Shown: positions 3,842-36,946 of the stretch, in pieces
Position numbering within the stretch: the first letter of the stretch is position 1
Layout of the letters: every line of letters starts with the position of its first letter
From: Clostridium sp.
GTDB taxonomy: Bacteria > Bacillota > Clostridia > Clostridiales > Clostridiaceae
DNA: 64,000 nt
NCBI RefSeq assembly: GCF_026168755.1
Contig: NZ_JAPFDR010000010.1
Coordinates: 17,487-81,486, forward strand
Direction: 5' to 3'
Position numbers and translations under genes: made by a program
Notes under the pieces: generated by a model
The model's input: the letters and a program-made list of their open reading frames with translations, nothing else
The model's database searches: none
What the model was told of the DNA's origin: nothing

Positions 3842-4121
3842 TTATACTAATTTTTGCTCAAATATATTATCTAAATTAACCTTTTTAATTCTATCATTAA
3901 TTTCCTCTTTATCAGTAGTATAAAGACCTAACTCTTGCATTCTCTTAAAATAGCTAGCACCAGCAAAAGTATATCTATCCTTTCTACCTTCCCTAGTTTC
4001 AACTTTTTCATTAGCAAAAGAAATTAAATCGCCTATTGCTATAGAAGAAGGTAAAATTAATAGTGGCATTCCCAGCATTAACCTTACAGCATTATGACCG
4101 GCTAAGCTACCTGTACATATA
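3842..4121 (-). CDS. Segment 3 (C-terminus) of the interrupted GidA/MnmG-related FAD oxidoreductase
   Basis: Reads (HTEA)ICTGSLAGHNAV..., the G-xx-EA-xxxG-xxAG-xNA motif of the GidA family; continues segment 2 in frame across the repeated core. The ORF-track N-terminus MQSGLKISQFSH is element DNA. Confidence 0.9.
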
Positions 4122-4133
4122 GCTTCAGTATGA
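4122..4133. repeat. Element B att core, left copy (GCTTCAGTATGA)
   Basis: Identical to 14329-14340; encodes H-T-E-A on the - strand. Confidence 0.92.
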
Positions 4134-4191: not shown

Positions 4192-5790
4192 TTATATTTT
4201 ATTAGAGTATGTAATACTTATTGTATTACATTCACTACCCCAAATAATTTCTTGAAAAATATTCCTTAAAACTTTCTTTTTATCTTCATGATTCAAAAGA
4301 TCGAATGTGCTTTGAAAATTATTTATTTTATTTCTTATACTTTCAATATCTATTTCTTCATTTATGATAGTAGCATTTTTTTGTATTACACTATTTAATG
4401 ATTCTTCTAATTCTTTAATTTGAAAATTAATATCCCTAATTATTTGCTGATATTCTAAAATTATTTCTTTATCTAGATTAGAATCTAAAGTTTGTAATTG
4501 TAAAAACATATTTCCCTTTTTATTCTTTAGTTGTTGAATAGTATTGTTTATTTCATCTACTTCAGTATTATTATTTATTAAGCTATCATTTTTCAATATC
4601 TTATCCAACTCTTCTATTACTTTAGAAGAATCATATCCAACTACCTCTTCAACAATCCTTTTATCTACAATTGCTCCATTTAGATTTTTCATATTACAAA
4701 TTGTATTACTGCTATCTATTTTCATACTGCAAGCGTAATAATAAGGCCTTGTCCCATCTTTTAATTGACGAGCCTTAACTACATTCATTACAGATCCACA
4801 CTTACAACGTAATATACCACTTAAAAGTGCAACATTAGAATTACCTCTATTAGGTTTGTTATGTCTATTCTTAGATATTAACTCTTGTACCTTTATCCAA
4901 TTTTCAGCTGGTATTACACCATCATGCTTTGATGTTGCAGCAAGCTTTGGGTTATTTCTTGTTTTATCATTAGTCCTTTTGCAATAAGTTAAAATACCTT
5001 TTCCCTCTTCTTGTTTAGTTACAATGTAGCCTTGTTCTTCTAAAAACTCTGCAATATCCTCATTGCACATTGCATAAGTTGGATTAACAAGAACACTCAT
5101 AATTGAACTTTTATTAATATATCCACCCTTTTTGCCTCTAACCTTATTTTTAAGGAGATATTTATGAACCTTACTTACTGATTCAAATTCTAAATAAAGA
5201 TTAAACATCTGTATTACTTTATCTATTTCTTCCTCATTAATAACTAATGAACTATAATACCTAGTCTTACCATGTCCATCTATAAAAGATTCTCTTACAT
5301 GATTAAATCCCAAAGGAGCTTGACCTCCAAGCCACCTACCATCTCTAGCTAAAAGGTACATATTATCTGTAATACGTTGTATTAAATCATCTCTTTCAAA
5401 CTGAGATATACTAGCCAAAATAGTTAAAAACATAGTTCCCATTGGACTACTAGTATCTATTTTTTCTGTAACACTGTGTAATGCACATTTATATTCTTTA
5501 AAAATATCAATTGTCTCTAAAATATCTTTAACTTTTCTTCCAAGACGATTAAGTTGATAAACTATAACTGCATCTAACTCTTTTAGCTTAATCATATGAA
5601 TCATATTTTTAAATGCTGGTCTATCTGTATTTTTACCACTATAACCTTCATCTTCAAAGATTTTTATTTCTATATTTTTTTCTTCCATAAATATAAAGTT
5701 TATATAATCTTTACATCTATCGATCTGATTACCAATAGAGTCTCCCTTTCCTGTAAATTTTGACTTTCTCGAATATATAGCAATTTTCAT
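4192..5790 (-). CDS. Large serine recombinase (SpoIVCA/CisA-like), element B
   Basis: 532 aa; YSRKS catalytic motif, EDEGYSGKNTDRP, LNRLGR, recombinase domain GGQAPLGF, zinc ribbon CKC...YYYACS, coiled coil; intact. Confidence 0.95.
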   Translation of the reverse strand: MKIAIYSRKSKFTGKGDSIGNQIDRCKDYINFIFMEEKNIEIKIFEDEGYSGKNTDRPAFKNMIHMIKLKELDAVIVYQLNRLGRKVKDILETIDIFKEYKCALHSVTEKIDTSSPMGTMFLTILASISQFERDDLIQRITDNMYLLARDGRWLGGQAPLGFNHVRESFIDGHGKTRYYSSLVINEEEIDKVIQMFNLYLEFESVSKVHKYLLKNKVRGKKGGYINKSSIMSVLVNPTYAMCNEDIAEFLEEQGYIVTKQEEGKGILTYCKRTNDKTRNNPKLAATSKHDGVIPAENWIKVQELISKNRHNKPNRGNSNVALLSGILRCKCGSVMNVVKARQLKDGTRPYYYACSMKIDSSNTICNMKNLNGAIVDKRIVEEVVGYDSSKVIEELDKILKNDSLINNNTEVDEINNTIQQLKNKKGNMFLQLQTLDSNLDKEIILEYQQIIRDINFQIKELEESLNSVIQKNATIINEEIDIESIRNKINNFQSTFDLLNHEDKKKVLRNIFQEIIWGSECNTISITYSNKI

Positions 5791-5810
5791 TTTTGTATTA
5801 CTCCTTCTAA

Positions 5811-5966
5811 CTAATGTTTATATTCTTCGTCATTAAATTTTTCAATCAACAATCTACAAACTTCAACTCCATATACATTAATTAATGCTCTTGCTATTGA
5901 CTTATAGGCCTCTTCCCCTATTGATTCCTTATTTTCTTTAAGTATTATAATATTGCCTTTTTTCAA
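5811..5966 (-). CDS. 51-aa protein upstream of recombinase B; candidate recombination directionality factor
   Basis: Manual: GGAG RBS, TTG start, MKKGNIIILKENKESIGEEAYKSIARALINVYGVEVCRLLIEKFNDEEYKH*; stop lies 21 bp before the recombinase start. Confidence 0.6.
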   Translation of the reverse strand: MKKGNIIILKENKESIGEEAYKSIARALINVYGVEVCRLLIEKFNDEEYKH

Positions 5967-6002
5967 AACAATTTTTACTCCACAACTAAATTATTATTAT
6001 TA

Positions 6003-6031
6003 TATTGTATTTAAATTATTATTGAAATGTT
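6003..6031 (-). promoter_or_regulatory. Sigma-K-like promoter (one mismatch)
   Basis: AACA-N16-AATACAATA versus the consensus mACm-N16-CATAnnnTA; AT-rich context lowers specificity. Confidence 0.45.
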
Positions 6032-6040
6032 ACAACTTAA

Positions 6041-6086
6041 ATAAAAATGCAGAGTTAGATTTTTACTATCTTACTCTGCATTTTAT
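6041..6086 (-). terminator. Terminator after the Fic pseudogene
   Basis: aaaatgcagagt / actctgcatttt inverted repeat. Confidence 0.6.
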
Positions 6087-6120: not shown

Positions 6121-6828
6121 CTACTTCCAAAGATTAGAATACTCATTTTTAAAATCATCTAATGATAATATATATTTTTCTAAAGGTGAAAAGTCTAAAT
6201 CATTACATTCATTAAGTGATTTTCTATATAAATCTTCAGTATCCCATGATATAATTTTCACTTCTAAATTTTGTTCTAACATTTGTTTTAACATTATAAA
6301 CCTTCCTATTCTTCCATTACCATCTTGGAATGGGTGAATAAGTTCAAATCTATAATGAAATTAAGCTACATCTTTTAAAGTAATTTTATTTAATGAATAA
6401 TACCATTCTAAAAGTTCATCTAGTTTACTTTCAACTTCAAATGGTTGAGCTATCTTTGCATTTGTTCCTATAATCATATTGGGAATAACTTTATAAATTC
6501 CTGCATATCCTTTTGCATGCATACTAGTATTAAACATTAAACTTGCATGTATATTTTTAAGAAATTTATGATCTATCTTTTCTCCTAATGTTTCTATAAT
6601 TGTATCAAAAACATAACTTGAATTAACCGTTTCTTGTACATCATCTAAAGTATGCTTACCTTCAACAACATTTTTATCTAATAATAAAGCTAATGCTTCT
6701 GTTGTAAATGTACTTCCTGCAATTTTATTTGAATTATATAAAAAGTTATGTTTTAAAACAGCATATAATGAATTTTTAAAATCCTTAGTTTCATTTAACA
6801 CATCTATAAAAGTTTTTTCGTTAACCAT
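6121..6828 (-). pseudogene. Fic-domain protein with an in-frame nonsense codon
   Basis: Reads ...LKDVA*(TAA 6361-6363)FHYRFELIHPFQDGNGRIGR...NLWK*; the canonical Fic motif lies after the stop. Confidence 0.85.
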
Positions 6829-14328: not shown

Positions 14329-14541
14329 GCTTCAGTATGACCAACAAATAACCCTGCTTTTTCACCTGCACATAAAAGATTATCTACTCCAATAACCTTC
14401 ATATCATTAGCCCTTGGTGCCACAGATAAATATCTTATAGAATTACCCTTACTTCCTGCATAAGGATCAACATACTTAGCATATTCAAGACCTGGGATCT
14501 TTCTAAGCTTTTCAAGTGGATAATAAGTTGTCATAAGCTTT
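14329..14541 (-). CDS. Segment 2 (213-bp middle piece) of the interrupted oxidoreductase
   Basis: (HA)KLMTTYYPLEKLRKIPGLEYAKYVDPYAG...DNLLCAGEKAGLFVGHTEA; in frame with segments 1 and 3 across both cores. Confidence 0.92.
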
Positions 14542-14599
14542 GCATGTGCAGTGTGTACAAAAGTGCAACCTTTGCAACAATATTTGCCCCAATACGTTT

Positions 14600-32918: not shown

Positions 32919-33074
32919 TTAATCAAAGTACTTACAATCATTTTCTTCAAGATAATCAACAATTAAATCTATTTCCTCAGACGTAAATTTTTGTATTGCA
33001 ATATCTGTTAATATATCTATTAACTTATTTTCTAAAATACTCATATCTTCTGGATAAATACATGTAATCGTCAC
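32919..33074 (-). CDS. 51-aa acidic protein divergent from recombinase A; candidate recombination directionality factor
   Basis: Manual: GGGGG RBS, GTG start, MTITCIYPEDMSILENKLIDILTDIAIQKFTSEEIDLIVDYLEENDCKYFD*. Confidence 0.65.
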   Translation of the reverse strand: MTITCIYPEDMSILENKLIDILTDIAIQKFTSEEIDLIVDYLEENDCKYFD

Positions 33075-33257: not shown

Positions 33258-34895
33258 ATGAAGATTGCTATTTACTCAAGAAAGAGCAAATACACAGGAA
33301 AAGGTGATTCCATAGGTAACCAAATTCAAATGTGTAAGGACTACATTGAGACTAATTATAGAAATAAAGACCATGAATATATTATTTATGAAGACGAAGG
33401 ATTTTCTGGTGGAAATATCAACAGGCCAAAGTTCCAGAAGCTTCTTAATGATATTAAAAAAGAAAAATTTGATATTCTAATATGCTATAGACTTGATAGA
33501 ATTAGTAGAAATGTATCTGACTTCTCCACTACCTTAGATGAAATTCAAAGCTATGGAGTTGATTTTATAAGTGTTAAAGAACAATTTGATACAACTACTC
33601 CAATGGGAAGAGCTATGATATACATAGCATCAGTATTTGCCCAACTTGAACGTGAAACCATTGCTGAACGCGTAAGAGATAATATGATTGAACTAGCCAA
33701 GTCAGGAAAATGGTCTGGAGGTAGAACCCCTCTTGGCTTTGATAGTGAAGGTTCATCTTATATTGATGAAGAAGGAAATGAAAGAAGATTAGTTAAACTT
33801 GTGAAAAATGATGAGGAGCTAAAACTAGTTAATCTTATTTATGATACTTATCTAAGAGAAGGTTCATTGCATAAAACAGAAACTTACTTTGCTTCTCACA
33901 ACATTAAATCAAATAGAAATATCCTTCTTGAAAAAACATCATTAAAGGTAATCTTAAATAATCCTGTTTATGCAATAAGCTCTCCAGAACTTAAGAGGTG
34001 GCTTGAGGATGATGGATGGAATGTATATGGTGAACCTGATGGCAAACATAGCTATCTTAGTTATAATAAGACAAAGCACGTAACTAGAAATGGGAAATCA
34101 ATGAAAATACCAAACGATAAAGAAAATTGGATAGCTGCAATAAGTAATTGCCCTGGTATAATTGAAGCAGATAAATGGATTCAAGTACAAGAACAATTTA
34201 AAGGCAATAGAGGTTCATTCCCTAAAAAAGCAAGAACCCACGATGCAAAACTTGTTGGAAAAATATATTGTGCCCACTGTAATAACTACATGCAGGTGAT
34301 TCATGGAAATATTAAAAAAGATACAGGAAAAAGACAACACTACTACTCCTGCTCATTAAAAAAGAAATCCAAAAATGAATTATGCAAAAACAAAAATGTT
34401 AAGATAGATGCTGTAGAAGATTTATTACTCCAAGAGCTAGAAAGACTAGATAAAAATAAAAAAAGCTATATTCAAAGCCTTAAAAAGAAAAATAACTCAG
34501 TTAAGAAAAATAAAGATGTAAAACAAAAGCAGATATCAATACAAAAAGAAATTGATGCCAAACAAAAAATACTTAATAATTTAATAGATAAGTTAGCAAT
34601 TGCTGATGACCTAGATGATATAATAATACAAAGAATAAGATCCACTAAAAATGAAATGCAAGAGTTACAGAAACAACTAGATGAAATATCAAAAGAGATA
34701 GAAGATTCAAACTACAAGAAATTAGACCTAGACTTTATAAAAAGCTTACTAGAAAAGTGTGCTGATATAAGAGAACTAGATTCTAATGAACAAAGACTCC
34801 TAATAGGTGTTTTAGTAGATAAGATTCTATGGGATGGTAATACTCAAGATGTAACAGTATATTTCATTGGAAGTGGAGACGTAAAAAAAAAGTAG
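33258..34895 (+). CDS. Large serine recombinase (SpoIVCA/CisA-like), element A
   Basis: 545 aa; YSRKS, EDEGFSGGNINRP, RLDRISR, GGRTPLGF, zinc ribbon CAHC...YYSCS; intact with GAGGTG RBS. Confidence 0.95.
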   Translation: MKIAIYSRKSKYTGKGDSIGNQIQMCKDYIETNYRNKDHEYIIYEDEGFSGGNINRPKFQKLLNDIKKEKFDILICYRLDRISRNVSDFSTTLDEIQSYGVDFISVKEQFDTTTPMGRAMIYIASVFAQLERETIAERVRDNMIELAKSGKWSGGRTPLGFDSEGSSYIDEEGNERRLVKLVKNDEELKLVNLIYDTYLREGSLHKTETYFASHNIKSNRNILLEKTSLKVILNNPVYAISSPELKRWLEDDGWNVYGEPDGKHSYLSYNKTKHVTRNGKSMKIPNDKENWIAAISNCPGIIEADKWIQVQEQFKGNRGSFPKKARTHDAKLVGKIYCAHCNNYMQVIHGNIKKDTGKRQHYYSCSLKKKSKNELCKNKNVKIDAVEDLLLQELERLDKNKKSYIQSLKKKNNSVKKNKDVKQKQISIQKEIDAKQKILNNLIDKLAIADDLDDIIIQRIRSTKNEMQELQKQLDEISKEIEDSNYKKLDLDFIKSLLEKCADIRELDSNEQRLLIGVLVDKILWDGNTQDVTVYFIGSGDVKKK

Positions 34896-34943
34896 ACTCT
34901 CTACTTCCTGATTTATTCCAATTGTTGCAAATTCAACCACACA

Positions 34944-35728
34944 GCATGACCAGTATCAAGTAAAACTATATTTTCTGCAAACTCCTTAAGTGCATATTGT
35001 TGACATACCTTTGTACTAAGCTTACCATAATTTACATCTTCATCAGGAACCTTTAAAACAACTACCCCTGTTTTATCTAGTTGCTCTCTAATTTCATTAG
35101 ATAAACTTTCCTTTGCAAGCTTACAAGATCCTGAAAATGCTCCAAGTGCATCTCCATCTCTTTCACCTTGAATATCTGAAACTCCACATCTTGCACTTAT
35201 ACTTAATCTTGGTCCAAAAGCAGGGCAACGCAATATACACATAGAACATCCATTACCATATCTTAAACAATTCCCCATAGGTCCTGTTGAACCAGTTGTT
35301 TCAATAAACACATCACCTTTAACGTAAGTGTCATCACTTAATAAAATTCCCCTTATCTTATTGTTTTCAACATCAACATCTTTAACACGACTCTCTAAAT
35401 GAAGATGTATTCCTAATGATTTCAAATAATCTCTTACTACACCTTCAATAATATTAACATCATAAAGAGTTGCATGTTTATGACCAGGGAATTCTATATT
35501 AGCATGTCTTGCACATTTATCTGTTATTTCAATTAAGTCTCCTGCCCCTAAAGCTATAAGCTCTTCTGATGCAGTATAACGTCCATTATTTCTCATTATA
35601 CCACCAACATTACCAAGTCCAAGTAAAAGATCTGTTTTTTCATAGATATGGACATCTGCTCCAGCTTTCTTCGCTGTTATTGCGGCAGCACAGCCTGACC
35701 AACCTCCCCCAACAACTACTACCTTCAT
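34944..35728 (-). CDS. Segment 1 (N-terminus) of the interrupted GidA/MnmG-related FAD oxidoreductase
   Basis: VVVGGGWSGCAAA FAD-binding motif; native sequence ends at DTGHA (codon 262); the tail VWLNLQQLE* to 34913 is element DNA. Confidence 0.92.
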
Positions 35729-36717: not shown

Positions 36718-36946
36718 TTAAACTCCTAAAGTAATACTATACACTATATAGATTATTTTAAAAATTTCTTTTTGTTACTATAAGTCCTCTGATATATAAA
36801 ATATTCTACTATATTTTAATAAATAAACTTATTACATGTTTAATAAGAAATTATTCATATATTTAATATAATTTATAAACATAAAAAGCCACAACATATA
36901 TAAAATAGTTAACTATCTTATATATGTTGTGACTAAAATGTCTTCT

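Follow-up and report, generated by a model that had tools for sequence, protein, structure and literature searches.

A 51-codon gene upstream of a large serine recombinase gene: a candidate two-gene excision module in an element that splits a flavoenzyme gene of Clostridium

Introduction

A large serine recombinase (LSR) is normally unable to recombine attL with attR without a recombination directionality factor (RDF), and known RDFs bind the recombinase at the junction of DBD2 (the zinc ribbon) and the coiled coil (PMC12286644). Here a stretch of 64,000 nucleotides from Clostridium sp. was analyzed (the window; assembly GCF_026168755.1, contig NZ_JAPFDR010000010.1, positions 17,487 to 81,486), in which a 51-codon open reading frame (ORF) lies directly upstream of the gene for an LSR, recombinase B, in element B, which interrupts the gene of a FAD-dependent oxidoreductase. 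We propose that the small ORF and recombinase B form a two-gene excision module, in which the small protein would serve as the RDF and a mother-cell promoter would set the timing. For this reading as a whole we estimate a probability of about 0.58.

Pairs of this kind have been described in several spore formers. SPbeta of Bacillus subtilis splits spsM, and its excision restores the gene; the LSR SprA is accompanied by SprB, a family-less protein of 58 amino acids (aa), and sprB has a mother-cell (sigma-E/K-type) promoter of its own with an imperfect element (PMC4191935). The gin element in gerE of Bacillus cereus is a non-phage intervening element, in which the LSR GirC is paired with a tiny and often unannotated RDF, GirX (42 aa); GirX was recognised because no other gene accompanies the recombinase in all related elements, and the two are expressed in mid/late sporulation (PMC5595907). 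In skin(Cd) of Clostridioides difficile, a clostridial LSR (CD1231) is matched by a 72-aa RDF without homologues (CD1234), and a mother-cell promoter restricts excision (PMC5025042). The yin element in yabG of Clostridium botulinum V73 encodes an LSR and a predicted 53-aa RDF, whose putative SigK promoter matches the SigK control of yabG (PMC10747680).

The present locus is similar to all of these in outline and differs from each of them. Between SprB and the small protein there is no sequence similarity, sprB is not adjacent upstream of sprA in an operon, and the host genes differ; moreover, SPbeta is an active phage, whereas element B is without phage genes in the part examined and its cargo is decayed. 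GirX is likewise not homologous and belongs to another genus and target, and its activity is proven in vitro, whereas the present protein is known from its sequence. CD1234 depends on sigma-E and SpoIIID while CD1231 is separate and driven by sigma-A; here the −35 element carries the 'AC' of sigma-K and the recombinase gene appears, in the window lineage, to share the promoter. The target of skin(Cd) is sigK, which is uninterrupted in the present genome. The RDF of yin was proposed from AlphaFold complex models, its adjacency, target gene and protein family are different, and yin was reported as unique to one strain (PMC10747680), unlike the present module, which was found in at least eight lineages and several species. 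The pair is thus set apart by its tight upstream adjacency (an operon in the window lineage), its sigma-K-type −35 element, its target gene and the presence of a second, independent element in the same gene. The kind of system is known, namely an LSR with a tiny family-less protein and a mother-cell promoter, and this example of it is most likely previously undescribed.

Results

The small ORF and its homologues

The two genes and the sequences between them are as follows.

5811-5966 (end coordinate including the stop), minus strand: small ORF, candidate RDF of recombinase B; TTG at 5966, TAG ending at 5811, 51 aa
5978-5981, minus strand: GGAG ribosome-binding site (RBS) of the small ORF, by direct reading, 11 nt ahead of the TTG
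5791-5810, minus strand: 20-nt intergenic spacer with the recombinase RBS GAAGGAG (5801-5807), a shortened form of the 95-124-nt spacer of other lineages
4192-5790, minus strand: recombinase B, a 532-aa LSR (Pfam: Resolvase 1.9e-34, Recombinase 9.5e-12, Zn_ribbon_recom 3.9e-10)

A preliminary description of this DNA had placed a 51-aa ORF 21 bp upstream of the recombinase B gene. The ORF is present at 5811-5966 on the minus strand, with homologues and signs of purifying selection, and the gap was measured as 20 nt, the recombinase ATG being at 5790. Its product is MKKGNIIILKENKESIGEEAYKSIARALINVYGVEVCRLLIEKFNDEEYKH, with a mass of 5.9 kDa and an isoelectric point (pI) of 6.6.

A search of 5.8 billion proteins returned 14 homologues of 51-58 aa each, with 63-94% identity, none of them named. 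When 1.8 billion cluster representatives were searched with a profile, no more than 4 further small clusters (48-54 aa) were gained; the long multi-stretch matches from the same search were discarded as low-complexity noise. Overall, the homologues are 48-59 aa long and fall into eight diverged lineages, in all of which the frame is open. The distant members, of the L015, L018 and L019/L020 types, have 30-40% identity, and 11 alignment columns are invariant even when distant homologues (down to 36% identity) are included. The start codon is TTG in seven lineages and GTG in one, preceded in every lineage by GGAG or GGTG at a distance of 7-11 nt. At the deeper divergences (pS 0.29-0.48; six lineages, ungapped codon alignments) the pairwise ratio of nonsynonymous to synonymous divergence (dN/dS) was 0.16-0.28; close pairs were uninformative, with too few changes. 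Independent pipelines also predict the ORF as a gene, and its homologues in public collections are all nameless. Because of the homologues and the purifying selection, the 51-codon ORF can be taken, with near certainty, as a real protein-coding gene.

The small ORF is the constant companion of recombinase B

The clade of recombinase B (recB) is sharply bounded, with at least 70% identity within it and at most 44% to the next relatives. Wherever the context was readable and the recB orthologue intact (72-97% identical), the small ORF was found directly upstream of it; this holds in 7 lineages (loci L006, L009, L010/L011, L014, L015, L018, L019 and L020/L021). It lies in the same element and is conserved with every recB-clade gene examined, that is, in these seven intact lineages and in one decayed lineage. 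No such ORF was seen at the distant LSRs L016 (35%) and L017 (28%), or at the LSRs of other clades in the same host gene (G004, G008, G017, G024, G006, G018). The genes upstream of the small ORF vary by lineage and include those for a Fic protein, an AAA-ATPase, another LSR and VanZ/acetyltransferase. Among the loci examined, no gene but the small ORF accompanies the recombinase throughout. It was likewise as the one constant partner that sprB (PMC4191935) and girX (PMC5595907) were identified.

Some of these loci have features of their own. In Clostridium disporicum (L015:1984-5620) two LSR genes stand in tandem, one for a 530-aa protein (29% identical to recombinase B) and one for a 539-aa recB orthologue, with the small-ORF homologue between them; this arrangement suggests nested or tandem elements. 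L006 and L007 also contain a remnant of 26 codons, AFFILCRTFYNVYGADVCKLLVEKFS (L006:2001-2078, L007:1260-1337), which shares 50% identity with the C-terminal half of the small ORF. It lies about 2 kb upstream of the intact copy and may be a relic of an earlier module. In L001-L005 the locus is not in the FAD gene but follows an opp operon and a gene for an M42 peptidase, and this variant occurs in many public assemblies (50 blocks of the collection in the index).

Upstream of the small ORF in the window, ORFs of 57 aa and 155 aa (6121-6294 and 6361-6828, minus strand) appear to be fragments of one broken gene. In L009, where this DNA is shared, the small ORF is immediately preceded by an intact Fic gene of 242 aa, and L006 has an AAA-ATPase gene between the two. 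The cargo of element B is decaying while the small ORF and the recombinase gene stay intact. A strong hairpin separates the two parts.

6044-6084, minus strand: terminator-like hairpin (RNA fold), followed by a U-run (UUUUUAUUU) at ~6035-6043

Its folding energy is −18.4 kcal/mol (z −7.76), and none of 200 shuffled sequences folded equally well. In L006 and L001 the same place is taken by different hairpin-plus-T-run sequences. The hairpin ends the decayed upstream Fic gene and sets the small-ORF unit apart.

Excision of element B would restore the host reading frame

The ends of element B and the pieces of the host gene were located as follows.

4122-4133: 12-bp core (GCTTCAGTATGA on the plus strand) at the recombinase end of element B, from the exact repeat and the junction reading frames
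14329-14340: repeat of the 12-bp core, 10,207 bp from the first copy, marking the other end of element B
3842-4121, minus strand: C-terminal piece of the split FAD-dependent (GIDA/TrmFO-like) oxidoreductase gene, about residues 335-425, from joined-protein comparison
14341-14546 and 34913-35728: other pieces of the FAD gene

Element B measures 10,207 bp and is bounded by the 12-bp core, which occurs exactly twice in the window. Its insertion point in the FAD gene is the motif GHTEA, near codon 334. The same gene is interrupted again at DTGHA, near codon 263, by the unrelated element A, whose recombinase (33258-34895) is 33-38% identical to recombinase B. The three pieces, once joined, give a 425-aa protein that is 94-96% identical to uninterrupted orthologues over its full length (1-425), and removal of element B at the 12-bp core would restore the intact host frame, as expected of a gene-intervening element. 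The recB-clade copies for which downstream sequence was available all abut a piece of the FAD gene that starts near residue 320, and these pieces are 75-92% identical to that of the window. The names attached to related loci are Clostridium sp., C. disporicum and C. saudiense. The module has therefore stayed at one site through species-level divergence, with the pieces of the split gene kept open. Since the interrupted gene is kept intact, precise excision presumably still happens.

The FAD gene is the second gene of an operon with a gene for a PRK05802-type FAD/NAD-binding protein. Upstream of this operon a motif of the same type as that of the small-ORF promoter (described below) was found.

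~36744-36779 (approximate), minus strand: promoter region of the host operon, GTAACA-N15-AATAATCTA

Five related species (L026, L027, L031, L032/33, L036) share this host-operon motif, in the form GTAACA-N15/16-AATAnnnTA, and two others differ. The shared motif suggests that the excision switch and the interrupted gene may be co-regulated, in the way proposed for yin and yabG (PMC10747680). A literature search for the FAD gene as a sporulation gene or as a target of intervening elements returned nothing.

Across 40 relatives, the FAD gene is intact in most and split in others, near codon 87 (G017, G024), codon 263 (G006, G018, G040) or codon 334 (G004, G008, G035). The genomes with a split gene span two families, and serine recombinases of differing clades adjoin the FAD pieces where the adjacent DNA was read (G004, G008, G035, G017, G024, G006, G018). 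The FAD gene is a recurrent landing site.

The promoter of the small ORF

Two promoter-like elements precede the RBS of the small ORF.

6028-6033, minus strand: −35-like hexamer GTAACA with the sigma-K-type 'AC' (AACA at 6028-6031), conserved
6003-6011, minus strand: −10-like element AATACAATA (xATAnnnTA), 16 nt past GTAACA

The preliminary description had read here a sigma-K-like promoter with one mismatch, and AACA-N16-AATACAATA was confirmed, with the same positions conserved in eight lineages. The mismatch of the window site to mACm-N16-CATAnnnTA is a C to A change. When the eight lineages were anchored on GTAACA, all of them had GTAAC(A/G)-N16-(A/C)ATAnnnTA, the spacer being always 16 nt long and its letters scrambled. 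GTAAC is invariant and the sixth position is A or G; ATA...TA of the −10 element is also invariant, and L015 and L021 have a perfect CATAnnnTA. The mean information content was 1.87 bit per position for the −35 hexamer, 0.51 for the 16-nt spacer and 1.16 for the −10 nonamer. The distance from the −10 element to the start codon is 31-38 nt.

In the 3.29-Mb genome (28% GC), AACA-N16-[AC]ATAnnnTA occurs at 115 sites on the two strands together, about 0.1% per 80-nt interval for this single pattern. AACA-N16-CATAnnnTA was found 39 times against a background of ~24, a modest spacing peak at N16, and TTGACA-N17-TATAAT 33 times against ~3, so that the sigma-A peak of this genome lies at N17. A single-site match is weak by itself and exceeds chance only through the conservation across lineages. 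On that conservation, we regard the promoter with good confidence as a conserved one, and its assignment to the mother-cell class as probable.

In clostridia the −35 element of sigma-K is 'AC' and that of sigma-E is ATA (PMC3789822), so the invariant AC favours sigma-K. A sigma-E promoter was considered and rejected, the −35 element being invariantly 'AC' with no ATA at the proper spacing. GTAACA also resembles the SpoIIID box TGTAACAAT, which in C. difficile lies upstream of the RDF gene CD1234 (PMC5025042); whether read as a sigma-K element or as a SpoIIID box, it points to the mother cell. The genome has intact, uninterrupted copies of both sigK and spoIIID. Perfect mACm-N16/17-CATAnnnTA sites with an RBS precede, among others, genes for an Amidase_3+SH3 (CwlC-like) protein, a ferritin/rubrerythrin-like protein and a GT4 glycosyltransferase, whose products are plausible late mother-cell functions.

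The spacer between the two genes

The spacer between the small ORF and the recombinase gene is 95-124 nt long in five lineages.

L010:680-795, L015:3877-4000, L018:647-761, L019:545-639 and L020:5163-5282: loci with the long spacer

Just upstream of the recombinase RBS these lineages have a near-invariant 24-nt block, ACACAAATA(T)CCTTACTAAATAATT, here called the ACACAAATACCTTACTAAATAATT block, which might function as operator, as second promoter or as RNA element. No convincing terminator or conserved RNA structure was seen in the long spacer, the consensus fold being weak (−3.95 kcal/mol). The window lineage (the window, L006, L009 and L014) has lost the long spacer together with the block, and the last 20 nt with the RBS remain. 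Because the gap is only 20 nt and contains no terminator, co-transcription of the recombinase gene is plausible in this lineage, as the preliminary description had suggested, and the conserved promoter very probably drives the recombinase gene as well.

Comparison with the ORF of element A

A second 51-aa ORF stands beside recombinase A in element A (32919-33074, minus strand), divergently oriented and with a pI of 4.05. The two ORFs had been described as equal in size and loosely similar in pattern. The equal size holds, at 51 aa each, and the similarity does not: BLASTP gave no alignment of the two at E <= 100, and the pI values are 6.6 and 4.05. The equal length is coincidental. A divergent 60-aa ORF in G017 showed no similarity either. 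The genome-wide scan for sigma-K-type sites found a perfect AACC-N16-CATAGTATA site with an RBS in front of the element A ORF.

The small protein as a candidate RDF

That the small protein is the RDF of recombinase B we consider somewhat better than an even chance, on an argument from context: it is the only constant partner of the recombinase, and a gene-restoring LSR element needs an RDF. The protein gave no significant match in Pfam, NCBIfam, PHROGs, PDB sequences or Foldseek-PDB and showed no similarity to known RDFs, and no phage copy was present in INPHARED. The absence of homology is neutral, since RDFs are non-homologous. An AlphaFold2 model of the monomer (alignment of 11 sequences; mean confidence score pLDDT 75) has confident helices at residues 18-32 and 34-50 and a low-confidence N-terminus.

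The course of events that we envisage is as follows. At the edge of the 10.2-kb element, near codon 334 of the host gene, the small ORF and the recombinase gene would act as one excision module. Transcription would start a few bases past GTAACA-N16-xATAnnnTA, most likely a mother-cell (sigma-K-type) promoter, and in the window lineage the transcript probably extends past the small ORF to include the recombinase gene. On the model of SprB, GirX and CD1234, the small protein, mainly two helices, would bind the recombinase near the junction of zinc ribbon and coiled coil and would turn an enzyme that integrates (attP x attB) into one that excises (attL x attR). Loss of the element from the chromosome of the terminal mother cell would then coincide with expression of the host operon, which has the same promoter motif. 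In this scheme we infer the sigma factor, the timing, the protein-protein binding and the RDF activity.

Several observations weigh against the proposed module. In L001-L005 (6001-7270) deletion and frameshifts have left only fragments of the recombinase gene, next to a small ORF that is intact (82% identical). In an AlphaFold2 model of the L020 fusion the recombinase part folds normally, and the small-protein part has a pLDDT of 33-47; this fusion, in which the two genes are read in frame with the four spacer stops taken as Gly, is a stand-in for a complex prediction, gives no contact or predicted aligned error output and speaks neither for nor against binding. The divergence of the small protein does not track that of the recombinase coiled coil, the L015 recombinase being 87% and its small ORF 36% identical. 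As for the promoter, the −10 element is without the consensus C in six of the eight lineages, and the variant of the window, AACA-N16-AATAnnnTA, occurs 76 times in the genome against 50-93 at other spacings, with no excess at N16. A scan for the sigma-A consensus gives GTAACA-18-TACAAT a score of 9/12. The promoter motif, finally, is the one ground on which sporulation-specific expression of the host operon is suggested.

Alternative explanations

It might be argued that an AT-rich intergenic leader contains the small ORF merely by chance, since the frame is short, has a non-ATG start and matches no family. The homologues and dN/dS have already effectively refuted this: eight lineages, down to 36% identity, keep the frame open, with an excess of synonymous changes and a conserved RBS, and independent gene calls agree, which leaves the idea a negligible probability. 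Very improbable, too, is a role as a leader or upstream ORF whose translation, rather than its product, tunes the expression of the recombinase. The weak TTG/GTG start kept in all lineages and the mere 20 nt to the recombinase gene in the window lineage would fit such a role, but the amino-acid sequence itself is under purifying selection (dN/dS 0.16-0.28; 11 invariant columns), and in most lineages the ORF stops 95-124 nt ahead of the recombinase gene, too far for translational coupling. If the product matters, it could still serve in regulation or in maintenance of the element, for instance by binding DNA, perhaps at the ACACAAATACCTTACTAAATAATT block, and so repressing or activating the recombinase gene. 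This would account for the strong conservation of the 24-nt block in the 95-124-nt spacer of five lineages and for the small ORF kept beside a dead recombinase gene in L001; most homologues outside the window lineage are basic (pI 7.9-9.3), and a beta-like N-terminus (E5-10 in the fusion model) followed by two helices loosely recalls ribbon-helix-helix (RHH) proteins, as does a weak, non-significant match to the RHH protein ORF56 (E 0.52, PDB sequences). Nevertheless, no significant match to an RHH, helix-turn-helix or excisionase family was obtained in Pfam, NCBIfam or PDB, and none with Foldseek; the monomer model consists of helices only; and the window lineage, without the spacer block, still keeps the small ORF under selection. 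Because a gene-restoring LSR element needs an RDF and no other conserved candidate was seen, we hold a regulator to be rather unlikely.

The timing is open to a different objection, namely that the motif is a housekeeping sigma-A promoter, GTAACA-N18-TAnnnT, and that the module is expressed in growing cells, excision being rare or stochastic and not developmental. Besides the consensus score given above, a TAnnnT is contained in the −10 box of every lineage (in L019 a perfect TATAAT), the recombinase gene CD1231 of C. difficile is driven by sigma-A (PMC5025042), and the host gene is a metabolic-looking flavoenzyme without a known role in sporulation. Against this, the non-consensus G1 and A3 of GTAACA are invariant, with no drift to TTGACA in eight lineages, and the invariant A residues that flank TAnnnT are left unexplained by sigma-A, yet fit CATAnnnTA. 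An 18-nt spacer is suboptimal as well, when the sigma-A peak of this genome is at N17. Moreover, constitutive LSR and RDF would cure the element, whereas elements with decayed cargo persist across species with the split gene intact. For these reasons (static G1 and A3, invariant flanking A residues, and the expected loss of the element under constitutive expression), sigma-A is judged the less likely explanation, with a chance of about one in five, and a mother-cell promoter is preferred.

Discussion

If the small protein is the RDF of recombinase B, the pair would be a new recombinase/RDF set for genome engineering, with a defined att core and an RDF of only 51 aa. In sequence it is unrelated to the second LSR system of the same cell, and the two may be orthogonal. 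The case is also a reminder of how many genes of this small size are overlooked or stay nameless.

The footprint of the small-ORF promoter provides a clean case, open to experiment, in which the excision switch of an element has the same type of promoter as the interrupted gene. A bolder and tentative extension, which we think doubtful at present, is that the FAD operon is an unrecognised late mother-cell (sigma-K-class) operon in which at least three unrelated families of serine-recombinase elements have repeatedly landed, in several genera and at codons ~87, ~263 and ~334. The recB family would then have copied the host promoter signature, GTAACA-N16-AATAnnnTA, onto its small RDF gene, so that excision is timed to need, and in the present genome two independent modules would both have to fire to rebuild one gene.

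The interest of the pair grows with the recurrent targeting of the flavoenzyme gene. If the proposed module is true, the range of developmentally excised elements would come to include commensal Clostridium of the gut (the C. saudiense/disporicum group) and a new target, the gene of a flavoenzyme, which would thereby be implicated in late sporulation.

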